A DNA stretch of 64,000 bases from assembly GCA_964636545.1 (NCBI GenBank), contig CAZWSR010000002.1, forward strand, positions 32,001 to 96,000. The letters run 5' to 3'. Numbering within the stretch: position 1 is the first letter of the stretch; each line of letters opens with the position of its first letter. The position numbers and the translations under genes were made by a program. Shown one piece after another: positions 6,891 through 54,745 of this stretch. The notes below the pieces were generated by a model. That model searched no databases. It saw only the letters and a list, made by a program, of their open reading frames with translations, and was not told the DNA's origin. This stretch comes from Candidatus Undinarchaeota archaeon (GTDB taxonomy: Archaea > Undinarchaeota > Undinarchaeia > Undinarchaeales > UBA543).

Positions 6891-6946
6891 TTATACTCCG
6901 GTTTAGTGTATTTAGTTGATATATGTGTGTTGTATCTGTTATATAT

Positions 6947-7008
6947 AGGTGTCGGATATCCGGGATCGGGGATCGGGCCCGATACCAGATACCTGTTGCC
7001 AGATGCCT
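6947..7008. repeat. heptamer-periodic imperfect palindrome
   Basis: GGTGTC/GATATC/GGGATC-type units at 7-nt period, centre GGGCCC, mirrored by GATACCA GATACCT GTTGCCA GATGCC. Confidence 0.7.
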
Positions 7009-7046
7009 TTTAATAAGCTTTATATACTCAGCTGTACTCCTAATAT

Positions 7047-7212: not shown

Positions 7213-7863
7213 GTGGAACACATAAAAATGCAATTTGTCTATTCAAAAGACAAATCTACAGACATTAGAAAAACAGTAGAAAAAATTTGTTCTGATTTTA
7301 GGACTCAGTGTTCTGAAAAAATAATTTCAGCAATTTCTTCTAGAGAAGAGGGTTTTTCAGATTTTATATTAGACAAAATAGTTTTTCAAACATCAACAAA
7401 ACAAGAGGCTCAGAACAAGTATACTGGAAAAATATTTTACTTAAGACCAATGGCACAACTAGATATTGAAAAATGGACGGTTTGGATAGGAGAACATGGA
7501 ATGCCGGCTGAAGATTTTGAGGAAATTGAGAGTTTTACAAATGATATTTATCTGAAATATGCTGAAAGTTCTGGTTTGCCTGATTTTTATATTCCTGCCT
7601 ACTTGTTTTTAATGTATTTTTTTAAAAAGACAAAAAATAGTGAGGAATTAAAAAAAGAGTTACTAAACAAAACAGCCCCATTTCTGGCCGCAGTTATAGA
7701 AGTTTCTGAGAAACAAACCACAGTGGAAGTAACTATAAAACCGAGAAATTCTTTTGAAAAAAGCGAATTATATCAGAAAGTATTGGGAGAATTTAGTGGA
7801 TTAGAACCAAAAAAATCAAAACAAATGAAAGCAGACAGATATCTAATACCACCAAAAAGATAG
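7213..7863 (+). CDS. hypothetical protein
   Basis: 216-aa AT-rich ORF, no motif recognised. Confidence 0.55.
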   Translation: MEHIKMQFVYSKDKSTDIRKTVEKICSDFRTQCSEKIISAISSREEGFSDFILDKIVFQTSTKQEAQNKYTGKIFYLRPMAQLDIEKWTVWIGEHGMPAEDFEEIESFTNDIYLKYAESSGLPDFYIPAYLFLMYFFKKTKNSEELKKELLNKTAPFLAAVIEVSEKQTTVEVTIKPRNSFEKSELYQKVLGEFSGLEPKKSKQMKADRYLIPPKR

Positions 7864-25133: not shown

Positions 25134-25601
25134 TTGATGAGTGGGTTGGTTGTAGGCATAGATCCTGGTGCAAAAACAGGGGTATGCGCACTGAATTTAA
25201 GTGGTGATTTTGTTGGTGTACGAAGTGAGAAAGGATTTTCTAAAGAGAAGATTATTAGATATATTTCTGAGTTGGGTGAGGTGGTCATTATTGCAGTTGA
25301 TGTTGCTAAGATGCCAAAAACTGTGAAAGATATTGCTCAGAAATTTAGAGCTACTTGTTTTGTGCCTAAGAAAAATATTAGCACCTTAGAGAAAGCTCGG
25401 TTGTATAATCGATGGATGGAGAAAGGTGGTAGAAGATTGGCAAACCAGCATGAAAAAGATGCGCTTGTTGCTTGTTTGCTAGCTTATTACGAGAGGCAGA
25501 ATAAGATGAGAAGTGTTGAGAAAAAAGGTGGGGGAGATTTGGTGAAGAAGGCCGTTATTCGTGGGAAGAAGGTTGGGGACGTTATTGGGAAAAGTATATA
25601 A
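25134..25601 (+). CDS. DUF460 (RNase H-fold) protein, short form
   Basis: VVGIDPG, IAVDV, HEKDAL. Confidence 0.8.
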   Translation: MMSGLVVGIDPGAKTGVCALNLSGDFVGVRSEKGFSKEKIIRYISELGEVVIIAVDVAKMPKTVKDIAQKFRATCFVPKKNISTLEKARLYNRWMEKGGRRLANQHEKDALVACLLAYYERQNKMRSVEKKGGGDLVKKAVIRGKKVGDVIGKSI

Positions 25602-25627
25602 ATTATTTACCATATAGTAAATAAATA
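25601..25627 (+). promoter_or_regulatory. 27-bp operator-like site AATTATTTACCATATAGTAAATAAATA, copy 1
   Basis: Between TATA (~25596-25602) and ATG 25627; identical to 27751-27777. Confidence 0.7.
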
Positions 25628-27713: not shown

Positions 27714-28531
27714 AAATTATTCAAAAATTAATAATTTTTTAAAATTAGTGAATTATTTACCATATAGTAAATAAATAGGGTGGTGTGACCCCTTAGTTGC
27801 GAGTGGAGATGATGAAGGTGGTATGTGGTTTGATTTTTTTTATTATATTATTATCTATATGGTAAATATATATATATATATATATATAAATTTTTTCCTC
27901 AAAATTCTAAAAACACTTCTTATGGAAAAATAATTGAAATTTTTTATCACAACCCAAACTAAAAAACCTAATATTTTTTTGATCAATAAAATAAAAAAAA
28001 ACTAAAATATTTTTATTAATATTTTATTTTTCTCACTATTTCCCTTTCTTTATTTTTTATCACCAAATATTATGGGGTGGGTTCACAAATAGGACAAAGG
28101 GCCCCAATAACCCAACGTATTCAGGGGGGCATTCCTCAAACCCTTTTAGGGATTATTCTAAAACCATCAATAACCACCATCAACCCCGCCATTTCCTATG
28201 GACAGTTACTGGTTTTGTTATTTCACTGAAAAACGAATATTTTTCTGTTCTTTTTCTTTTCCTCTTTTTTACCCACTACCCACTACCTACTACCAACCAC
28301 CTTTATTTCCTCTGGAACCCCTATACTAAAACCGGCACCAGTAGAACCCACACTTCATCTGGAACCAAATACTCCAAAAACACCACTCAAAACCTCCAAA
28401 ACACTTCCAGACGAAGCCAAGGGGACACACCCCTACAACAAAGCTTATATACCCTAATTTCATATGCAACTATTAGTCGCATAGGTGGGGAGAATGGCAC
28501 CCATTCTTATGCACTTCGGTGGGTTTATCCA
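27714..28531. other. putative replication origin oriC
   Basis: Gene-free 0.8 kb before cdc6-DP1-DP2. ORB-like boxes: (-)~28184-28203 TCCATAGGAAATGGCGGGG, (-)~28298-28320 GTTCCAGAGGAAATAAAGG, (-)~28347-28366 GTTCCAGATGAAG, (+)~28405-28425 TTCCAGACGAAGCCAAGGGG. AT-rich DUE 27830-28060 with (AT)11; strand-composition switch. Confidence 0.8.
27751..27777 (+). promoter_or_regulatory. 27-bp site copy 2 at left edge of oriC (inverted variant at 27848-27868)
   Basis: Identical to 25601-25627. Confidence 0.7.
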
Positions 28532-29725
28532 ATGGCACAACAAAATCTTCATGACTTATTTGATGACTTTCTAAATCGGGCTCCGCACTTCACAAGGAAG
28601 GACGCGCTCCAAGACACATATACTCCAAGCCAGGTTCCGCACCGGGCTGAGCAAATCAATCAGCTTGCTCAAATCCTGGTTTCTGCACTCCGTGGTGAAA
28701 AACCAAGCAATGTGTTTCTTTATGGCAAAACAGGTACTGGGAAAACCCTAGTTTCTCGATATGTTGGAGAAGAACTTGAAAAAAAGGCTGCAGCTCAGAA
28801 CATGGCACTCAAAATGTGTTACATCAACTGCAAACTTGACAAAATCAACACCGCATACCGACTATTCGCTCGTTTCTTAGCAGAATTTGGAGAAGAGGTG
28901 CCACCAACTGGCCTTCCAACACACGAAGTTTATACACAATTCTTAAACACAATGAATAAACGCAAAGGAATTTTTATCTTGATTTTGGATGAAATTGATT
29001 CACTGGATGACACAGACATTCTCTACAATCTTTCGCGCATAAATACAGAGCTGAAGAATAGCCGAGTGAGCATAATTGGCATCTCCAATGACCTCTCCTT
29101 CACAAACAACCTTGATCCACGCATAAAATCGTCACTTTCAGAGGAAGAACTCGTATTTCCGCCATACAATGCTAATCAAATCAGCGACATCTTAACCCAG
29201 CGCGCAGAACTTGCACTTCAGAAAAACATACTTGATTCTAGTGTGATTCCAAAATGTGCTGCATTAGCTGCTCAAGAACATGGGGATGCTCGCAGAGCAC
29301 TTGATTTGCTTCGTGTTGCTTGCGAAATTGCAGAGAGAAAAGGGTCCCAAAAAATCGAAAGCGTGCACGTTGATGATGCACAAAAGAAACTTGATATCGA
29401 CCGTGTTGTTGAAGTTGTCAAAACCCAACCTCGCCAGTCTCAGCTTGTACTTCACAGCATAATCTATCTTACTGATTTGAATAAGGAAGACATTGGAACT
29501 GGTGATGTGTATGAGGTTTACCAAACATTTTGCAAACAAACCGGTCTCTCCCCACTTACCCAGCGCCGCGTTTCAGACCTAATCTCAGAATTGGATATGC
29601 TTAGCTTAATAAATTCATCAGTTATTTCAATGGGGCGCTATGGCCGAACCCGCAAAATTAAACTGGAAATAAGTGGGCGGGCACTTGAAAAATCCAAAGG
29701 AATTCTTGATGAGGAGTTGTCATGA
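28532..29725 (+). CDS. cdc6: Orc1/Cdc6 replication initiator
   Basis: YGKTGTGKT, LDEID, FPPYNANQ, HGDARRALDLLR, GRYGRTR wH. Confidence 0.97.
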   Translation: MAQQNLHDLFDDFLNRAPHFTRKDALQDTYTPSQVPHRAEQINQLAQILVSALRGEKPSNVFLYGKTGTGKTLVSRYVGEELEKKAAAQNMALKMCYINCKLDKINTAYRLFARFLAEFGEEVPPTGLPTHEVYTQFLNTMNKRKGIFILILDEIDSLDDTDILYNLSRINTELKNSRVSIIGISNDLSFTNNLDPRIKSSLSEEELVFPPYNANQISDILTQRAELALQKNILDSSVIPKCAALAAQEHGDARRALDLLRVACEIAERKGSQKIESVHVDDAQKKLDIDRVVEVVKTQPRQSQLVLHSIIYLTDLNKEDIGTGDVYEVYQTFCKQTGLSPLTQRRVSDLISELDMLSLINSSVISMGRYGRTRKIKLEISGRALEKSKGILDEELS

Positions 29726-36376: not shown

Positions 36377-37543
36377 TCATAACAAACTCATTACAACGGG
36401 CAATGCTATAAAAGTTCCGATTATACTTCCCAAATTAGCAAAAGCAACAACTAACAAAATCCTAGTAACTTGATTTTTCCAATACGCTTTCACACTATCT
36501 AACTTATTCAAATTCTTAAAGTCCTTCACTTTCGGATTTCTTATTTTTGCTTCAACATAACCAGCAAACCACCCAGCAGCTAACAAAGGATTAACTGAAG
36601 TAAATGGGGCAGCTAAAAATGCAGTCAGAATTGACAAAGGATGTCCAAGTGCAATCAATGCACCAAGCGCCGACAAAGTTCCATTAATTAAAAACCACCA
36701 CATCAACATATTCAAAGTTGTTCCCAAACCTTTTGTAGCAAAACCATAAACTAATAAACCAAGCAGTAGCGCTGGAATAATCAACCCAGTCATCTTCAAT
36801 TTCTTTTTCTTTCGCCGCCCCGGCGCCCCGGCGCCCCGATCACCCTGAACCAATTTAGTAAACTCAATCCTATGCGGCAAAGCTCGTTTCATTCCTTCAA
36901 CATGTCCAGCACCAACAACAGCAACAATCTTCTTACCTTGAATTTTCTGCAGCATTCCAGCCATGTAAATATCTCGCTCATCAACCAGAATCCGCTTAAC
37001 ACTTGGGGCAGTTCTTGCTAATTCCTCCATTGCATCTGCCAAACCTTCACCTTCTTTCAACTTCTCAACAAATTCTTCATCAATATCTGCAGACAAAGTA
37101 TCAAAAAACAGAGATTTCACAACCCTGGCCTTTTCTATCAAAGACATGGAATTAAATGCTCGCTTCAAAGTAATTTGCACATCTCTATCTAAGAAAACCA
37201 GTTTTGATTTATATTTCTCAGCAGCTTCAATTGCACTAAGCATCTCTGCGCCAGGCTCAATTCCAAGATCTTTTCCAATTTTCTTTTGAATATTTGATAA
37301 AATCAAACTTGACAAAAACAAATATGTTTGTCCATCTTTGATAACTTGCTTAATTTCAGTGTTCTGCCAACTTTCTTTATTTTTCAGTGCATGATAACGG
37401 TTTGCATCAAGTTCAATTGCTACAATATCTGGCTTTTCTGTCTTGATAATCTCCGCAACTTCGTCCCGACTCTTTTTTGAAACATGCGCAGTCCCGACTA
37501 GAATAATCTCCTTTCCATTGTGTTCAATTTTCTCCACTGACAA
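36377..37543 (-). CDS. traB: TraB/PrgY (pheromone shutdown) family protein
   Basis: LVGTAHVS, ELD..R, PGAEM, DRDVQITLKR, ERD.YMA, VGAGH. Confidence 0.9.
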   Translation of the reverse strand: MSVEKIEHNGKEIILVGTAHVSKKSRDEVAEIIKTEKPDIVAIELDANRYHALKNKESWQNTEIKQVIKDGQTYLFLSSLILSNIQKKIGKDLGIEPGAEMLSAIEAAEKYKSKLVFLDRDVQITLKRAFNSMSLIEKARVVKSLFFDTLSADIDEEFVEKLKEGEGLADAMEELARTAPSVKRILVDERDIYMAGMLQKIQGKKIVAVVGAGHVEGMKRALPHRIEFTKLVQGDRGAGAPGRRKKKKLKMTGLIIPALLLGLLVYGFATKGLGTTLNMLMWWFLINGTLSALGALIALGHPLSILTAFLAAPFTSVNPLLAAGWFAGYVEAKIRNPKVKDFKNLNKLDSVKAYWKNQVTRILLVVAFANLGSIIGTFIALPVVMSLL

Positions 37544-43432: not shown

Positions 43433-43511
43433 GGCAGTAGGTAGAAGGCAGGGGGCAGTAGGTCAATTCCACTGCCTAGTGCCTATTACCCAGTGCCCGA
43501 ACAAATTTCTC
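43433..43511. repeat. 79-bp heptamer-periodic hairpin element, copy 1
   Basis: GGCAGTA/GGTAGAA... versus ACTGCCT/AGTGCCT...; 72/79 identical to 45058-45136. Confidence 0.85.
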
Positions 43512-45057: not shown

Positions 45058-45136
45058 GGCAGTAGGTAGTAGGCAGGGGGTAGTAGGTCTGTTCCACTGC
45101 CTAGTGCCAACTACCCAGTGCCTGAACAAATTTCTC
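45058..45136. repeat. 79-bp heptamer-periodic hairpin element, copy 2
   Basis: Direct repeat of 43433-43511; sits between convergent genes. Confidence 0.85.
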
Positions 45137-49753: not shown

Positions 49754-50326
49754 ATGACTTCCTTGCTTGAAAAAGAATTAGAATTCATTAAAAGTATAGA
49801 TTGGTTACAATCAATTAAACTTCGTCCAAGTATTGAGGGAAAGGTTTGGAGGCATGCTGCCAAATTTTTTGACTTGCTGGAATTGAAGAAGCAATGGGGC
49901 CGCCCACTATTTTCAATAAATTTATATAGATTCACCTGGGAAGAGCTTAAGAAACCTGACGACGATCCAGCTTTCTTCAAAAGAGACATTGAGGGGATTA
50001 ATAATATTCGCAAGCGAACCGGCTTTAATGTTGCTGTTCCACAGAATAAGATGTATATTGTTAGGAAGGCTCAGCAGTCTGCTGCAAAGAAATTGTCTAA
50101 ATACAAACATATTCTTGGGAAAGAGTATAAATACCTATTAAAAACTGCTTTTTTTGATATTCATGGTGCGATTGCTTGCGCTTTTTACGAAATTCCTCAA
50201 TTAAAAAACCCATTCCACCAATTTCTATCTATTTGGAAATTCGGTTTTTATCCAGTTGGGCCAGTTTATCAGACAATTTCTCCTCGTAAATTAAATATGT
50301 TTTTTTATTTTGTTCCTAAAAAGTAA
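49754..50326 (+). CDS. hypothetical protein
   Basis: 190-aa ORF; NPF..FLSIWKFGFYPVG. Confidence 0.55.
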   Translation: MTSLLEKELEFIKSIDWLQSIKLRPSIEGKVWRHAAKFFDLLELKKQWGRPLFSINLYRFTWEELKKPDDDPAFFKRDIEGINNIRKRTGFNVAVPQNKMYIVRKAQQSAAKKLSKYKHILGKEYKYLLKTAFFDIHGAIACAFYEIPQLKNPFHQFLSIWKFGFYPVGPVYQTISPRKLNMFFYFVPKK

Positions 50327-50346
50327 TTTTTAATCAAAAATCACCC

Positions 50347-50365
50347 TGTCTATACACCTGTATAG
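50347..50365 (+). repeat. left 19-bp inverted repeat TGTCTATACACCTGTATAG, followed by GGTAGTG-type heptamers to 50400
   Basis: Exact reverse complement of 54009-54027. Confidence 0.9.
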
Positions 50366-50526
50366 GTGGTGGGTTGTGGGTAGTAGGTAGTGGGTAGTGG
50401 CAAGAATTAAAGAGTAGAGAATCACGCCTCAGCATACTGGTTTTTAATCGCGGTTATGTAATCTCTTATTTATTATCTATATGGTAAATAATTGTAATAC
50501 TTTTGAATTCTGCCTTATTTCCCACA

Positions 50527-50965
50527 CTCACAAATTTATACTTGATTCTAAACTCTAAATTCCAAACTCCAAACTCCATTCTACTTCTCACAAACTGGAT
50601 TTTTACGAACAAACTCAGACCCCTGTCCTTTTCATATCTCACAAATAACCCCGAAACAGCTATATAGCTCCAGGCTATACTGATATATCTCACAAAGCGC
50701 CGGTAGTTTAGCCTGGTATGACCCGAGCTTCCCAAGCTCGAAACTCGAGTTCAAATCTCGGCCGGCGCACTCTCACAATCCTTATTTCTTACCCTCATAG
50801 CACACCATATTGGTGTGAAAATAACTCTCACAAACGAACATTTCAGTTATTTTTCGGTATGGCGCATGCTATCGGTTTCTGAAAAACGTTGTTTTAATGT
50901 ATTAAACGTATCTGATCACAGCTAAAACCTATATCCTCAACAATATAAATTATAGGTCTCACAAC
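50527..50965 (+). repeat. CTCACAAA array (left arm)
   Basis: Exact copies at 50527, 50587, 50638, 50689, 50827; variants at 50772, 50958. Confidence 0.85.
50697..50769 (+). tRNA. tRNA-Gly(CCC)
   Basis: GCGCCGG/CCGGCGC acceptor, CGAGC-TTCCCAA-GCTCG, GTTCAAATC. Confidence 0.95.
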
Positions 50966-51426
50966 CAACTCCCCCAATACCTGACAAATGTCATGTTTAC
51001 CATAAAACACCACATTTTGCTCCAAAAACCACCCTTTTTCTCACTTTTCTTGTATTTTCCTCATTTTTCCTGTATTTTCCCCAAATCTCACTAAACTCCA
51101 CCACATTAGTGACAAACGTCACTCTTTAGGTATTTTTTTCTCCTACTGCCCAGTGCCCACTACCTACTGCCAACATTTCCTCTATTATCGCAACGTTTTC
51201 CTACAAAAACCAATAACAACAAAAATGTCAGGTCATCAAACCGCTAACAAGAAATATGTCATCTTACATATCTTACACATTTTAGTGACATATAGACCCT
51301 TTGCCCTACAAAAAAAACCGATAGCAAGAGAACAACACCGATAGCAGTAAACTGTCCGATATGTAAGCTTACATATCTTACACATTTTTCGAAAGGTTTA
51401 TAAAGGATAAACCACTACCCCTCGGT

Positions 51427-51975
51427 ATGAAACTATTCTCTTTTTTCAAGAAAAAAGCCAAAAATGTGTCCGATATGTCAGGTGAAGTGTCAGATGACAC
51501 ATCAGATATGTCAGATGACAAATCTTACACTTCAGAAGTGACAAATGCCACTGTTTCACGCGAAGATCCGCTTTTTTCCATTTCCAGACAATTAACTCAG
51601 GTTCAATACGAATTACGTGAAATTAAACCACTAATCGAGTCCAGTACTCAAAGTTTACGAGAAGATCACTATCGATTACTTGAAGAACAAGCAAAAAGTG
51701 TTGAAGAATACAAAAAACACCTCTCATACAAGCGCGAAAACCTGAAGCAAGCGAAGGATAAGGTCGAAAAAGAGCTCAAACATGTTGAAGTTGATGCCAA
51801 AATCTTAGATCATGTTTCAATTGCTCCAAAACGTACTATTGAAATTTCTGAAGATTTGAAAATTAGTCGTGGTTACGCTGCTGAACGAATAAAAGCTTTG
51901 CTTGAAGCAGGGCAAATTACTCGCTTCAAACAAGGTCGAAAAGCATATTATAGAATTCCAAAACCAGAAAATTAG
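51427..51975 (+). CDS. amphipathic-helix / coiled-coil / C-terminal winged-helix DNA-binding protein
   Basis: MKLFSFFKKK; heptads; EISEDLKISRGYAAERIKALLEAGQI...GRKAYY. Confidence 0.75.
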   Translation: MKLFSFFKKKAKNVSDMSGEVSDDTSDMSDDKSYTSEVTNATVSREDPLFSISRQLTQVQYELREIKPLIESSTQSLREDHYRLLEEQAKSVEEYKKHLSYKRENLKQAKDKVEKELKHVEVDAKILDHVSIAPKRTIEISEDLKISRGYAAERIKALLEAGQITRFKQGRKAYYRIPKPEN

Positions 51976-51983
51976 GTCGCTTA

Positions 51984-52091
51984 CTACTTCTTTTGTCTCT
52001 CTGCCTTAGCCTTTCTTTTACGTGTTCTTTTCTTCTTAGTTCGCCTACGCATACTACCCTTCTTCTTCATTTTGTTAGGTGCCATCTTCAT
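51984..52091 (-). CDS. rpl41e: ribosomal protein eL41 (eS32)-like small basic protein
   Basis: MAPNKMKKKGSMRRRTKKKRTRKRK resembles archaeal L41e; own TTTTATAAA box about 25 bp upstream. Confidence 0.55.
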   Translation of the reverse strand: MKMAPNKMKKKGSMRRRTKKKRTRKRKAKAERQKK

Positions 52092-52186
52092 AGTGGCTTC
52101 TTGTTGAGACAACTGGTTTATAAAACTTCCTATATTCTTTAGTACAATAAATTTAATTCTCACAAACTCCGCCTTGCCGCGGACAA

Positions 52187-52277
52187 TGTGCAGGCATTGA
52201 AGTTGGTTACTGCACAAGTCTCAAACCTTCGGTTTGAGAGGATGGCATGAGGGCATTCACGCTTCGCGTGAAGCCCT
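52187..52277. repeat. cluster of three hairpins, two with C-GAA-G triloops on the minus strand (REP-like or terminator)
   Basis: TGTGCAG/CTGCACA; CTCAAACC-TTC-GGTTTGAG; GGGCATTCACGC-TTC-GCGTGAAGCCC. Confidence 0.6.
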
Positions 52278-52300
52278 GTCTTGAAATTGGTTCGTTCTAC

Positions 52301-52894
52301 TTAGTCGCTTCCTCTCGCTTTTGCAGTCTGAACCAATGAATTATACTCATTAGCAATATGCTCCCAAAACTTACTAAACTGCGTACTTGGTCTCACAATT
52401 TTCTTGTAATATTTCTGTTTTGAATGTTCATGATGGAATTCTTCACGCTCTAATCTTACCATCCCAACTCTCCTCAATCTGGGCAAGATCACGTTGTAAA
52501 ACGTAGCTTTTGAGAACCCTTTCTCTCGAATAAACGCCCCAATCTCGTCTCCTTTCAATACCTGTCTCTCAAATAACCTATTCATAAACTCTAGGGCTGT
52601 CAAGTGGTACTTTTGCTGATATTTTGGAGGAAAAACCAGCTCTAGTATCTGGTTTAGCTCAACCCTCACATTCTTATGATATGCCCAATCTGACCTCAAT
52701 CTTTTAACATCATCAAACCACATTGACTCTTTGCTTGGCACACCTCGACTTGCAGGTCCCCTCGCTGAAAAAGTTGGTTTTTTGCCTTCATCTCTCTCCA
52801 CAACTTGCACAACCTCGGATGCATATTCAATATCATTATGGTGTTTTTGGTCCATAGTCGCCGGTATGCTATCTTGGTATTTAAAACTTACCAT
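52301..52894 (-). CDS. winged-helix-like DNA-binding protein
   Basis: EIGAFIREKGFSKATFYNVILPRLRRVGMV HTH/wing pattern. Confidence 0.65.
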   Translation of the reverse strand: MVSFKYQDSIPATMDQKHHNDIEYASEVVQVVERDEGKKPTFSARGPASRGVPSKESMWFDDVKRLRSDWAYHKNVRVELNQILELVFPPKYQQKYHLTALEFMNRLFERQVLKGDEIGAFIREKGFSKATFYNVILPRLRRVGMVRLEREEFHHEHSKQKYYKKIVRPSTQFSKFWEHIANEYNSLVQTAKARGSD

Positions 52895-53119
52895 TATGGT
52901 AAACTCTGGGCCAAGTAAGAAATTAAAAAATCGTCTTCCGGTCTAGTGTAATGGTGTGATATCACTTTTTTGGTTGACAGGGGCTAGGGTATGCGATTAA
53001 ACAAGTATTTTTTATGAAAACTTAGCAAAAAACCTGATCCCAGTTTATCATAATGGTGTTATTCCACTATTTCCTAAAATCAAATTTCTACAACTTCAAA
53101 ATAACACCACAATGGTGTT

Positions 53120-53431
53120 TTACTCACTTTCTGGAATATTTTCTTCAGTTCTTTGCGCTAAACTCTTGAAAAGCAAATTTTCAAAGTCATTTGCCAGTGC
53201 ATTTCCAGCTTCAGTCAAACTTATGTATTTTACACGGCCATCCCTGTTAAATTCAACAAGTTTGTGATCTTGCATCTTTTGTAGCAATTTTACAGTGTGT
53301 GCGTACGTACAATCTATTCTTTTTGCTAAATTTGATGCATATGCCTCTGGATGTGCCTGTTTGATGTGTACAAGCAGTCTAGCTGGCTTTTTTCTAAGAA
53401 ACATCTCTTCTAATTCAATATTTGTTTTCAT
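53120..53431 (-). CDS. MarR-type winged-helix transcriptional regulator
   Basis: YASNLAKRIDCTYAHTVKLL...DGRVKYISLTEAG; ATG 53431 with GGGGT SD. Confidence 0.85.
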   Translation of the reverse strand: MKTNIELEEMFLRKKPARLLVHIKQAHPEAYASNLAKRIDCTYAHTVKLLQKMQDHKLVEFNRDGRVKYISLTEAGNALANDFENLLFKSLAQRTEENIPESE

Positions 53432-53615
53432 AATTTTACCCCCTGATGAACAACATCTCAAAAGTGAGAGTTGTCTTTTCTATCTTCCAACACAAGTTTT
53501 GGAATTATAAGTATTGTAATGTATCTTTAGTATTTATTCTTTTTCCAGTGACAATTGTCAGCAAATATCAAAACCGATAGCAAGCGAACCGTTCAATTTA
53601 TTACCCAAAATCTCG

Positions 53616-53868
53616 TTTGTGAGAGTTAGCTCATGTGTTAAAGTGTTTTTGAAAAATGTGAGACCGAAAAAATAGGTCTAACATTTTTGTGAGGGGCATC
53701 GGAGCATCGTAAATTCGTAGAGCCGGGGCGCCGGGGCGACGTAAAGTGGTTTTGTGAGTGAAAAACCAATTTGTGAGAGTTTGTGCAGAACCAAAATACA
53801 ACAAATCAAAAAGTTAGATCAAAAACATGCATTTGTAAGTGCTAAAAACTCTAAAATATTTTTGTGAG
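53616..53868 (-). repeat. TTTGTGAG array (right arm, inverted relative to left arm)
   Basis: Exact copies at 53616, 53686, 53751, 53770, 53861; variants at 53656, 53780, 53832. Confidence 0.85.
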
Positions 53869-54008
53869 GATTAGAAAATGGTTGGTGGTTGGTAGTTTGT
53901 GGTTGGTTGATGAACTAAAAAATACACAAACTAAAACCCAAAAACCAATATGTTGCGCACCAGTTTAGTTTTTCATTCTACCCACCACCCACAACCAACT
54001 ACCTACTA

Positions 54009-54027
54009 CTATACAGGTGTATAGACA
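54009..54027 (-). repeat. right 19-bp inverted repeat, preceded by CTACCCA-type heptamers from 53978
   Basis: CTATACAGGTGTATAGACA. Confidence 0.9.
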
Positions 54028-54121
54028 CCATTTATTTTCAAGCCATTTTTCATAATAACTAAAAACCGCCATCTAGCACCTAACCAATAACCTTAAAAGC
54101 CACCAGCCATTATTACAAATC

Positions 54122-54745
54122 ATGCCTAATCCACAGCTATTAGCTTACGTGCGCCAGAACCTCCAACTCAACTATTCTGAAGAACAAATACGCAATGCCC
54201 TAATCACTGCTGGCTACAATATGCGCGATATTGATGATGCACTTGATTCTGTTCTGCATCCCCAAGATCTTGCTCAAGTTCAACAAGCTCAACCACAAAA
54301 ACCAGAAGCAGTCGCCCAACAAAACTTTCTCCACAAAATCCCAACCTGGATGATTGGCGCCGCTGTTGGCGGAATTTTCCTACTTGTTGTAATCATAATT
54401 CTTCTCATTCCAAGCGGAGATGCTCCCTCTGGTCTTCTTTCAGAAAATGGAATCAAAGTTTCCGCATACGACTTTGCTTGCGCAGGTCCTGGATCAACAT
54501 TGACAATCACAATCAACAACGATGGCTTTGAAACCTTGTCAGATATTCAGCTTTTCGTGGATGACGCCTTTCAACAAGACCAACTCGTTCCATCACTAGA
54601 ACCAGATGCCTCCGGCACATATTCGTACTCAGGCATCGATTGCACAGAATGGGTACAAGGGAAAACCATAAAAATCGTTTCTGACAAGGCAGTAGTAGAA
54701 GGACCAATCGATTTCAAGTGCACTTCAGGTGCATGCTCAGGCTAG
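54122..54745 (+). CDS. single-pass membrane protein with N-terminal helical domain and Ig-like ectodomain
   Basis: LLAYVRQNL..YSEEQIRNAL..AGY; TM helix; ITINNDG. Confidence 0.65.
   Translation: MPNPQLLAYVRQNLQLNYSEEQIRNALITAGYNMRDIDDALDSVLHPQDLAQVQQAQPQKPEAVAQQNFLHKIPTWMIGAAVGGIFLLVVIIILLIPSGDAPSGLLSENGIKVSAYDFACAGPGSTLTITINNDGFETLSDIQLFVDDAFQQDQLVPSLEPDASGTYSYSGIDCTEWVQGKTIKIVSDKAVVEGPIDFKCTSGACSG

Follow-up and report, generated by a model that had tools for sequence, protein, structure and literature searches.

Inward-pointing, helically phased arrays of a short asymmetric word around winged-helix genes of Undinarchaeota: candidate operator arrays

Introduction

To our knowledge, almost nothing is known about gene regulation and chromosome organisation in DPANN archaea, and the Undinarchaeota are uncultured. 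A 64,000-base stretch of DNA from this phylum, referred to here as the window, carries a short word, CTCACAAA, that is repeated on the forward strand on one side of a small group of genes and on the reverse strand on the other. What kind of site would be repeated in this way, and why would its orientation flip across the locus? An earlier note on the same DNA had proposed phased, oppositely oriented iterons of the kind found in centromeres or origins, or KOPS-like directional signals, and had named a MarR-type protein of the locus as a candidate binder. These proposals were compared with the distribution of the word, its geometry, its conservation and the genes that accompany it.

Results

All 11 exact copies of CTCACAAA in the window lie within 50527–53868, and their strands are perfectly partitioned, with six plus copies on the left and five minus copies on the right (Table 1). 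The counts, strands and coordinates given in the earlier note were all reproduced, as were the first left-array spacings of 60, 51 and 51 bp. The total by itself is unremarkable, as shuffled windows contained 5.1 copies on average and at least 11 in 2 of 100 shuffles; the remarkable features are the clustering in a single span and the perfect strand partition. Under uniform placement, the probability that all 11 copies fall within that given span of 3,342 bp is 7.9e-15. When one mismatch was allowed, the window contained 103 matches, 22 of them within 50300–54050. A similar density in other intergenic DNA, which the earlier note had named as the observation that would speak against its proposal, was not seen, as none of the 11 exact copies lies outside the unit.

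CTCACAAA is the core of an asymmetric word of about 13 nt, TAAsT-CTCACA-WW, derived from a logo of 107 sites in which information is confined to positions −5 to +8. In each of the 11 Undinarchaeota sources examined, this word is found in excess near the gene trio: summed over the sources, its relaxed form matched 104 times in 47,549 bp near the trio, where shuffles predict 7.7 matches, and 13 times in 132,340 bp away from it, where 21.4 are expected. Alignments of three species show no change in the word or its immediate flanks, whereas the spacers contain many substitutions and indels. As far as sequence comparison goes, the word behaves as a DNA site, conserved while the spacers diverge.

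The opposed orientation described in the earlier note proved to be an inward polarity conserved in 11 of 11 Undinarchaeota sources. Across these sources, 35 plus and 5 minus matches were counted in the 800 bp upstream of the MarR-like gene, against 3 plus and 37 minus matches in the 1 kb beyond the p182 start. Three to six co-oriented copies occur within 800 bp upstream of the MarR-like gene in 8 of the 11 sources, and L003–L005 have none there. In L005, L007 and L010, the gene block has the opposite orientation with respect to the PRC/p153...SerS flanks, with the reservation that the contigs are metagenome assemblies, in which block inversions beside inverted repeats may be artefacts; the arrays of L007 and L010 still point inward, and L005 has minus copies only. 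The helical phasing suspected from the first spacings was likewise borne out, as a statistical property across species in which neighbour spacings cluster at whole turns. The 37 neighbour spacings from five sources, which are not independent because they are partly orthologous between species, gave R = 0.53 at 10.6–10.7 bp, a value that 0 of 5,000 random sets reached; without the window, R was 0.47 (n = 27, p = 0.002). Word conservation, turn-spaced neighbours and polarity together support the description of the copies as phased, oppositely oriented, iteron-like DNA sites.

Inverted repeats delimit the 3.7-kb unit to which the arrays belong. It contains tRNA-Gly(CCC) and three winged-helix genes; the MarR-like gene is followed by p197, and p182 is convergent to both. 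The two arrays lie 2.7 kb apart, with up to 6–7 copies each, and the right array is indeed located upstream of the MarR-like gene, as had been proposed. Orthologous left-array copies are retained in two related loci, L001 and L002, despite spacer divergence, and right-array orthologues are present there as well. A module of about 57 nt occurs once per array, in inverted orientation, in the window, L001 and L002. The boundary palindrome CTATACACCTGTATAG occurs only twice in the window; it is found at both unit ends in L001 and L002 and is missing from the other 78 loci (2/80). Near-copies of the 21-nt quasi-palindromic element lie at 25601–25627 and 27751–27777, and the unit also contains several palindromic repeat families. 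Orthologues of the isolated copy at 52159 are located downstream of p182 in L002–L008 and L011. The candidate structured RNA next to this copy matched no Rfam family, and its shorter relative in L002 shows two-sided changes in one hairpin.

Table 1. Positions of the arrays and accompanying features in the window
Feature	Position	Strand	Description
Left boundary inverted repeat	50347..50400	+	16-nt palindrome CTATACACCTGTATAG within a 19-nt perfect arm, then an inward G-rich heptad string
21-nt quasi-palindromic element	50470..50490	+	Identical to 27848-27868 in the oriC-like region
Left array	50527..50965	all +	Exact copies at 50527, 50587, 50638, 50689, 50827; variants CTCACAAT at 50772 and CTCACAAC at 50958
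tRNA-Gly BRE/TATA-like promoter element	50652..50667	+	CGAAAC..CTATATAG; between two copies 51 bp apart; conserved in L001 and L002
tRNA-Gly(CCC)	50697..50770	+	Lies inside the left array; L001 and L002 have it at the same place and in the same orientation
~57-nt module, left copy	50822..50878	+	Extended motif TAACTCTCACAAACGA, ~30 nt, then GC(A/T)TGCTATCGGTTT
p182 gene	51427..51975	+	Predicted disordered N-terminus, one ~85-residue helix and C-terminal ArsR-type winged helix
Small, very basic ORF	51984..52088	-	~34-35 aa; homologous ORFs readable in L001 and L002
Isolated + copy	52159..52166	+	Exact copy, immediately 5' of a GC-rich structured stretch
Candidate structured small RNA	52167..52290	+	MFE -49.9 kcal/mol, z = -2.7
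p197 gene	52301..52855	-	184 aa from conserved Met; MarR/PadR-type winged helix with long C-terminal helix
MarR-like small winged-helix gene	53120..53431	-	103 aa
Right array	53616..53868	all -	Exact copies at 53616, 53686, 53751, 53770, 53861; variants CTCACATT at 53655 and CTTACAAA at 53832
Right boundary inverted repeat	53978..54027	-	Mirror of 50347-50400

The tRNA gene lies within this geometry. The copy at 50689–50696 ends one base before tRNA-Gly(CCC), and the variant CTCACAAT at 50772–50779 begins 2–3 nt past its 3' end, so both neighbours reported in the earlier note were found in place; the tRNA-proximal copy is held 0–2 nt from the gene in all three species. The TATA-like word of the tRNA-Gly promoter starts 29–30 nt ahead of the abutting copy; one site ends 14 nt ahead of the TATA-like box and the next spans the predicted transcription start. 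The same register recurs in the window, where the copies at 50689 (the tRNA copy), 50958 and 52159 are each preceded by a TATA-like CTATAT whose first base is 29 nt upstream. Overall, a strict TATA at −29/−30 was present in 7 of 121 sites, and a TATA-like word at +20 to +22 in 6 of 121. The other two tRNA genes of the window lack the word.

According to Pfam and NCBIfam scans, the coding content of the unit is limited to three small winged-helix proteins and a basic peptide. Foldseek searches with p182 returned nothing below E 1e-3; among the weak matches, AspA, which binds the pNOB8 centromere (E 4e-3 to 7e-3), stood beside many generic ArsR-type proteins. For p197, a weak match to the Bacillus subtilis replication terminator protein (RTP; E 8.5e-3) was obtained among many MarR/PadR proteins, and 115 relatives were identified in Undinarchaeota and Micrarchaeota genomes. 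In 10 Undinarchaeota loci, p182 homologues converge on p197; the word co-occurs with the MarR-like and p182 genes, which were likewise identified in 10 Undinarchaeota loci. It is not enriched in 69 Micrarchaeota-type loci that have p197 only (58 matches in 698,850 bp, with CTCACA in 4 of 69 upstream regions), and it is absent from L009, where p197, at 52% identity, is accompanied by neither a MarR-like nor a p182 gene. Moreover, the recognition-helix region of the MarR-like protein is nearly invariant across 11 Undinarchaeota sequences, as is the CTCACA core. This co-occurrence, which spans one clade and a single natural control (L009), suggests that the word tracks the MarR-like and p182 genes rather than p197 alone; the 103-aa MarR-like protein, already named in the earlier note and still a reasonable candidate, and/or p182 are thus the likeliest putative binders, with p197 less likely.

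Discussion

We give an even chance to the proposal that the copies form cooperative binding-site arrays for a winged-helix protein encoded by the locus itself, which would control the locus, including the tRNA-Gly promoter. TAAsT-CTCACA-WW would serve as the docking site of this protein, and each array is co-oriented with the unit that it precedes, namely the operon running from the MarR-like gene to p197 on one side and the tRNA-Gly/p182 side on the other. As the two transcription units converge, the arrays point at each other, and this convergence would be the whole of the apparent flip. Sites on one face of the helix would suit cooperative binding, bending or wrapping, which may yield one nucleoprotein complex per array, with some sites bracketing promoter elements. 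The predicted-start position next to the TATA box is where archaeal repressors typically block polymerase recruitment. Given that the sites bracket the tRNA-Gly promoter at this repressor position, the complex would be expected to auto-regulate the three regulator genes; it may also gate tRNA-Gly(CCC) and the small structured RNA.

In favour of operator arrays, all three locus proteins are predicted to be winged-helix proteins, and regularly spaced sites are present in the upstream region of the regulator gene itself. Dimers of MarR-, PadR- and ArsR-type winged-helix proteins usually recognise palindromes. No such boxes emerged from the logo, which is asymmetric, and only occasional head-to-head pairs were seen, such as 1882/1890 in L006. 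This asymmetry counts against an operator function, and the palindromic repeat families of the unit would suit MarR/PadR/ArsR-type proteins better. The copies are mostly far from start codons, at about 185–440 nt before the MarR-like ATG and 460–900 nt before the p182 ATG; these distances are long range for archaeal promoter control and likewise count against it, as do a register with a TATA-like word that is fixed in a minority of copies only and the empty 800 bp upstream of the MarR-like gene in L003–L005.

A comparable arrangement is provided by Ss-LrpB of Sulfolobus solfataricus, which recognises three evenly spaced boxes upstream of its own gene and wraps about 100 bp of DNA (PMC1802622). 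The likeness lies in the presence of several regularly spaced sites in the control region of a regulator gene and in sites that overlap or flank promoter elements, which are predicted ones in the Undinarchaeota locus. Cooperative binding and a wrapped DNA complex, as described for Ss-LrpB, are proposed here by analogy (PMC1802622). Ss-LrpB, an Lrp-family protein with a ligand domain, uses three palindromic 15-bp boxes at one promoter (PMC1802622); the Undinarchaeota locus differs in its asymmetric word, two convergent arrays, three winged-helix genes and the tRNA within an array.

The position of single copies could also be explained if each were a core-promoter or initiator-type element, or a 5' leader word, at the beginning of a small transcription unit (tRNA-Gly, small RNAs or small ORFs); the arrays would then be inward-pointing batteries of small genes, and the basal machinery or a dedicated variant of a basal factor would recognise the word. 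The direct abutment of copy 50689 to tRNA-Gly in three of three species fits this explanation, as do the copy at 52159, which abuts the RNA candidate, its L002 orthologue, which lies about 36 nt ahead of a 70-codon ORF, and a polarity that always matches the local direction of transcription. Furthermore, because CTATAT is located exactly 29 nt upstream of three window copies, the predicted start falls inside the word. However, the 107-site logo contains no upstream TATA/BRE signal (information of about 0 at −20 to −35), the strict TATA is rare among the 121 sites, and the spacers between copies, unlike RNA genes, show little conservation even among closely related species. T-runs that follow many copies by 5–10 nt (T-enriched at +13 to +17) would terminate transcription immediately, such a model gives helical phasing no part to play, and the two other tRNA genes of the window manage without the word. 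We therefore regard promoter or leader words as unlikely.

The centromere comparison made in the earlier note stood in part. Partition centromeres such as parC/ParR of plasmid R1 and that of AspA on the archaeal pNOB8 consist of iteron arrays beside the gene of the binding protein and double as operator. The locus resembles them in that short direct repeats, all on the same face of the helix, adjoin the gene of a small, putative DNA-binding protein, and the phased, iteron-like array was upheld. The part that failed is the partition NTPase: no ParA/SegA, ParM or TubZ was detected by Pfam on 11 ORFs around the unit or by NCBIfam on 49 window and 7 local ORFs, which lowers the centromere reading, and no Par/Seg-type system of Undinarchaeota was found within the window. 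The locus is, in addition, chromosomal, and its convergent arrays flank genes. In a broader architectural form, p182 and/or the MarR-like protein would cover both convergent phased arrays, and bridging of the arrays would loop the intervening genes into a domain near the origin that serves to organise or segregate the chromosome; on this view, the paired-array geometry would have produced the boundary palindromes and the block inversions in evolution as by-products. Folding of the DNA back on itself would bring inverted arrays into parallel alignment, the predicted long helix of p182 (85 residues) with its ArsR-type winged helix and weak AspA matches would suit such a role, and about 22 kb separate the unit from the orc1/oriC-like region. 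Nevertheless, the structural likeness of p182 is generic to ArsR-type domains, the proximity to the origin comes from the window only, and a polarity that follows gene direction is simpler under regulation. An architectural role is thus, in our judgement, rather improbable.

The inverted repeats of about 30–55 nt that bound the unit in the window, L001 and L002 recall the ends of Tn7, Mu and plant Ac/En, transposons with subterminal transposase-binding repeats. The arrays start 110–127 bp inside each repeat and point inward, as in those elements, and could be former transposase or recombinase sites of a domesticated or decayed mobile element; the DNA just outside the repeats is variable (p190 in the window only, a TPR-DnaJ gene in L001 and L002 only), and the gene block is inverted in some genera. 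Unlike those elements, the unit has no transposase or integrase in or beside it in three species, it occupies the same syntenic site in all three and occurs once in 64 kb, and a target-site duplication is not evident at its ends. Moreover, the arrays and the trio extend across the phylum, but the boundary palindrome is confined to a single genus-level clade, which implies that the arrays predate the terminal repeats. A mobile origin is accordingly very improbable.

Replication functions fared no better. A second origin would place iterons beside initiators, and a polar Ter-like barrier would act through a winged-helix terminator; two opposed polar site groups beside winged-helix genes, the weak RTP match of p197, and the G-rich heptad string and 21-nt element shared with the orc1-adjacent oriC-like region all point in this direction. 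Archaeal ORB and mini-ORB sites are polar sites in inverted groups beside orc1/cdc6 that flank an AT-rich unwinding element, and the arrays share with them the inverted polar groups and a nearby G-rich string. A classic origin layout of this kind is found elsewhere in the window, at 27.8–28.3 kb (GC 0.26–0.30, with an (AT)n run between inverted G-strings) beside orc1 at 28532–29722; it is a separate locus with different, ORB-like repeats and without CTCACAAA, and the shared G-strings are scattered repeats, present 3' of ordinary genes as well. In the unit, no Orc1/Cdc6, MCM-loader or Rep-type gene was found, the arrays flank 2.7 kb of genes rather than an AT-rich unwinding element, and cumulative GC skew has its maximum at about 28 kb and declines monotonically across 50–54 kb with no inflection; the suggestion of an origin was therefore not sustained. 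Tus-Ter and B. subtilis RTP, with inverted Ter sites beside rtp, are replication fork traps, which the locus resembles in two opposed polar site groups adjoining a winged-helix gene. It differs from them in lying about 22 kb from the oriC-like region rather than opposite it, in showing no skew change, and in a polarity that travels with the inverted block, following the genes and not the direction of replication. Either replication function is highly improbable. A chromosome-wide KOPS- or Chi-like signal, which has only the polarity switch in its favour, has next to no probability and was refuted at the scale examined (the 64-kb window and 132 kb outside the trio), given that no exact copy lies outside the 3.7-kb unit and that the relaxed word is at or below chance density elsewhere. 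The origin, fork-trap, KOPS and transposon-end explanations thus all failed the tests that could be applied.

For annotation, a conspicuous repeat pattern has been given an explanation, and the case advises caution against calling an origin, a centromere or a transposon by appearance alone. One short asymmetric word, three small candidate binders and a defined geometry, present phylum-wide, make the locus compact and testable in vitro. If the arrays are architectural, they would be a first candidate for a chromosome-organising site in DPANN. If, as operator arrays, they are regulatory, an archaeal winged-helix protein would read a polar word in long phased arrays and gate a tRNA gene.

Polarized arrays within a single unit

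An exact search of the 64-kb window recovered 11 copies of the 8-mer CTCACAAA, both strands counted, and confirmed every position and the orientation switch reported in the earlier note. The number itself is unremarkable (shuffle mean 5.1, with at least 11 in 2 of 100 shuffles). All 11 copies lie within a single 3,342-bp span, for which the probability is 7.9e-15 for a given span, and their strand partition is perfect, with six forward copies followed by five reverse ones. One-mismatch variants share the orientation of the neighbouring copies. The tRNA-Gly(CCC) gene is framed as previously described, with copy 50689-50696 ending one base short of the gene and variant 50772 beginning 2-3 nt past its 3' end.

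The host is an archaeon; RadA, RPA, Hel308, Hef, the PolD large subunit and Orc1/Cdc6 are encoded in the window. The arrays belong to a unit of 3,681 bp with inverted repeats at its ends (50347-50400 and 53978-54027). In each boundary repeat, a perfect arm of 19 nt includes a 16-nt palindrome, and a G-rich heptad string comes next on the inner side; the palindrome occurs in the window at the two unit ends only. Between the arrays lies a trio of winged-helix genes, in which a MarR-like gene and p197 form an operon convergent with p182. Separately, a 57-nt GC-rich stretch (53694-53750) has a motif copy on either side; an inverted copy of its 17-nt core, GCCGGGGCGCCGGGGCG, lies at 36816-36832 within a TraB-family gene, possibly by chance.

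Coordinates of the word copies, unit features and repeats (window positions unless a locus is named)
Feature	Position	Strand	Remark
CTCACAAA, exact copies	50527, 50587, 50638, 50689, 50827, 52159	+	exact word search
CTCACAAA, exact copies	53616, 53686, 53751, 53770, 53861	-	exact word search
One-mismatch variants	50772, 50958, 51087	+	
One-mismatch variants	53655 (= CTCACATT), 53832	-	
tRNA-Gly(CCC)	50697-50770	+	first in unit order
p182 gene	51427-51975	+	
Very basic ORF	51984-52088	-	roughly 34-35 codons
Relatives of the basic ORF	L001 about 7330-7440; L002 about 6915-7025	-	
GC-rich folding stretch	52167-52290		directly after copy 52159; fold z = -2.7
p197 gene	52301-52855	-	
MarR-like gene	53120-53431	-	last in unit order
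Relaxed word, window plus 10 loci	800 bp upstream of MarR-like gene		35 + / 5 - matches
Relaxed word, window plus 10 loci	1 kb beyond p182 start		3 + / 37 - matches
Relaxed word, middle region, window plus 10 loci	between the two preceding regions		1 + / 23 - matches
Variable outside DNA	49754-50326; L001 3570-4565, 8832-9840; L002 3811-4857		
G-rich strings, inverted	27803-27832, 28269-28305		oriC-like region
ORB-like words TTCCTCTGGAACC / TTCATCTGGAACC	28307, 28354		oriC-like region
21-27-nt quasi-palindrome (x4)	25601-25627, 27751-27777, 27848-27868, 50467-50493		
(GGTAGTR)n strings	28269-28301, 43433-43500, 45058-45130, 50365-50404, 51153-51171, 53884-53895, 53978-54010		

Conservation and co-occurrence with the trio

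The p197 family is small (24 clusters), and a scan of species-representative genomes returned 115 relatives; the 80 loci retained were L001 and L002 from Undinarchaeota MAGs (p197 at 85-86% identity), L003-L011 from further Undinarchaeota-type MAGs (about 50%; L009 is labelled Woesearchaeota) and L012-L080 from Micrarchaeota-type MAGs (32-41%). Exact arrays in a window-like layout were found in L001 (five forward, then four reverse) and L002 (five forward, then six reverse), all inside the unit. A de novo search for clustered 8-mers in loci of at least 9 kb detected comparable exact arrays in these two only, and none in any Micrarchaeota-type locus. The relaxed word CTCACAWW forms arrays in each Undinarchaeota source, and a logo of 107 sites yields an asymmetric word of ~13 nt, TAAsT-CTCACA-WW, with zero information elsewhere.

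Counted over the window and 10 loci, the 47,549 bp of the trio region contain 104 matches (7.7 expected from shuffles), and the 132,340 bp outside it 13 (21.4 expected); the word does not recur there at similar density. The trio, with p182 convergent to the MarR-like gene and p197, is present in 10 Undinarchaeota loci, with no word copy upstream of the MarR-like gene in L003-L005. In L009, where p197 (52% identity) stands without these partners, CTCACA is absent from 6.9 kb. In the Micrarchaeota-type loci with p197, the partners were not detectable and no arrays were found (58 matches in 698,850 bp); k-mer enrichment upstream of p197 in 69 of these loci returned coding-bias words only, and Pfam annotation of its neighbours in 16 (40 ORFs) revealed no constant partner, a KaiC-type ATPase lying downstream of p197 in 4 of the 16.

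In alignments of the three close species, the invariant parts are the word copies, the tRNA with its promoter and a small number of further modules, and the spacers have changed at many positions, a pattern characteristic of binding sites rather than of small-RNA genes.

Gene-linked polarity and helical phasing

Relative to the flanking PRC/p153 and SerS genes, the gene block has the window orientation in L001, L002 and L008 and the opposite one in L005, L007 and L010. Because the arrays still point inward to the trio in the inverted blocks of L007 and L010, the orientation flip is linked to the pair of convergent transcription units rather than to replication direction, as read from metagenome assemblies. 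Some matches in the middle region fall within the p197 coding sequence, on its antisense strand.

The phasing suggested by the first spacings in the window extends across species. When each near-identical group is represented by a single member (window, L001, L002, L008 and L007), 37 spacings between neighbours cluster at whole turns of 10.6-10.7 bp (R 0.53; 0 of 5,000 random sets as high), and those outside the window do likewise (n=27, R=0.47, p=0.002), with p-values that are optimistic because some spacings are orthologous between species. Such same-face placement argues for a DNA-level function with cooperative protein binding and against an RNA-level function. A centromere-like or architectural role, part of which the earlier note had proposed, is compatible with this array geometry; nevertheless, the unit encodes no NTPase, and family scans of its proteins found no partition ATPase, recombinase or initiator.

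Relation to promoters and embedded RNA genes

The word could alternatively belong to core promoters or leaders. A BRE/TATA-like element at 50652-50667, conserved in three species, precedes tRNA-Gly and has a word copy on either side, the two being 51 bp apart. The one upstream stops 14 nt short of the TATA-like word, and the downstream copy covers the predicted start, placed by the usual archaeal TATA-to-start distance, with a gap to the tRNA of 0-2 nt in all three species. CTATAT begins exactly 29 nt before copies 50689, 50958 and 52159, and a core-promoter or leader role fits the tRNA copy and two others. However, most sites lack a TATA register, T-runs follow just past many copies, the spacers are unconserved and the helical phasing would be left unexplained. 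Nor is an upstream TATA box at a fixed distance a general feature of the copies (107-site logo, 121-site scan), as strict TATA occurs at -29/-30 in 7 of 121 sites and at +20 to +22 in 6. The other two tRNA genes of the window lack the word.

Rfam searches brought just three tRNAs to gathering score in the window, tRNAs only over 9 loci, and nothing credible at 50200-54200 (E <= 5) or 52140-52310 (E <= 10). The stretch at 52167-52290 and its counterpart at L002 8185-8300 (-) are a candidate structured small RNA with UUCG-type hairpins. In a BLAST search of 52159-52300 against all loci, L002 alone matched; its version is shorter and located inside the tRNA-side array, and both sides of one of its hairpins have changed with the pairing preserved. 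Near the trio, tRNA-Gly(CCC) genes were also observed at L002 8350-8445, L005 4658-4751 and L004 4555-4644, in the latter two loci on the MarR-like side rather than the p182 side. They are 90-96 nt long and therefore probably contain introns.

Unit boundaries and dispersed repeats

Terminal repeats, together with the variable DNA just beyond them, suggested transposon ends. The boundary palindrome marks both unit ends in L001 and L002 too, and the DNA immediately outside differs between species: a 190-aa ORF left of the unit is present in the window and absent from L001 and L002, and a TPR-DnaJ gene on the other side is present in those two and absent from the window. This reading is countered by the lack of a transposase, by the constant position of the unit and by arrays that are older than the repeats. 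The unit has the same neighbours in all three species, with SerS, an M42 peptidase and a CARDB protein at one end and a membrane protein, p153 and a PRC-barrel protein at the other; it is therefore a fixed chromosomal feature rather than a recent insertion.

The region 27750-28420, beside orc1 (28532-29722), is a likely chromosomal origin: its GC content is 0.26-0.30, it contains an (AT)n run and ORB-like repeats of its own, and the GC skew switches sign at about 28 kb. An origin at the unit, as the earlier note had considered, draws on two elements, the only ones common to both regions, namely the G-rich heptad string and the 21-nt quasi-palindrome. Like a fork trap, it is contradicted by a cumulative GC skew that has its maximum at about 28 kb and declines smoothly across 50-54 kb, by the absence of an initiator gene from the unit and by the gene-linked polarity. 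Moreover, the G-rich strings are a dispersed family (26 matches against 2.2 expected) occurring 3' of ordinary genes; at 43.4 and 45.1 kb, G-rich and C-rich arms form long imperfect hairpins just 3' of genes, with an identical short tail after each. Of the four quasi-palindrome copies, one immediately precedes an ORF start, two are inverted within the oriC-like region and the last sits just within the left end of the unit. The element resembles an operator for a different factor. A KOPS-like directional signal, also proposed earlier, is excluded at the scale examined, the exact copies of the 64 kb being confined to the unit and matches outside the trio numbering 13 against 21.4 expected.

Further repeats were observed within the unit. 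Dense direct and inverted repeats with a roughly 30-nt unit (51254-51550) extend from upstream of p182 into its N-terminal codons, which are poorly conserved. Palindromes of the TGACAAATGTCA type lie at 50982, 51110, 51539 and 53549. Four of the ACCATTATGGT type, also seen in L001, occupy 52829-53121, in the gap separating p197 from the MarR-like gene and at the beginning of p197, and are likely operators for a dimeric winged-helix protein.

Proteins of the unit and the proposed docking sites

The MarR-like protein matches HVO_A0114 and HTH_27 and falls among generic small archaeal winged-helix clusters in the protein atlas. For p197, the modeled core is confident and its likeness to MarR/PadR types is weak (best Foldseek E 2.4e-3, none <1e-3). 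For p182, the prediction suggests a disordered N-terminus, a single helix at residues 48-132 and then an ArsR-type winged helix, with generic winged-helix matches in Foldseek, none below E 1e-3. The very basic ORF is conserved as protein in three species, and its peptide of about 35 codons has no family match.

Co-occurrence with the arrays favours the MarR-like protein or p182 over p197 as the putative binder. The MarR-type protein thus stays the candidate that it was in the earlier note, with p182 now equally named; its recognition-helix region is nearly invariant across the phylum, as is the CTCACA core. Several features fit a docking-site reading less well. The word is asymmetric, while winged-helix proteins of such types are palindrome readers as a rule; most copies lie far from start codons; and other, palindromic repeat families are present in the unit.

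In the literature consulted, the closest described behaviour is that of archaeal regulators acting cooperatively on regularly spaced sites in their own control regions, such as Ss-LrpB, which occupies three boxes and wraps about 100 bp of DNA (PMC1802622). In contrast to Ss-LrpB, the word at this locus is asymmetric, the arrays are long, two of them face each other across three winged-helix genes, one contains a tRNA gene, and the arrangement is conserved phylum-wide. Titles and abstract openings concerning Undinarchaeota, DPANN origins and CTCACAAA in archaea describe no such arrays.

We conclude that the word copies are predicted docking sites for a winged-helix protein encoded in the locus, and we infer the binding, the binder and the regulatory outcome alike. 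The sites would let the protein bind cooperatively along one face of the helix, both upstream of the convergent units and over the tRNA-Gly promoter, and the expected outcome would be auto-regulation of the trio together with control of the embedded RNA genes.
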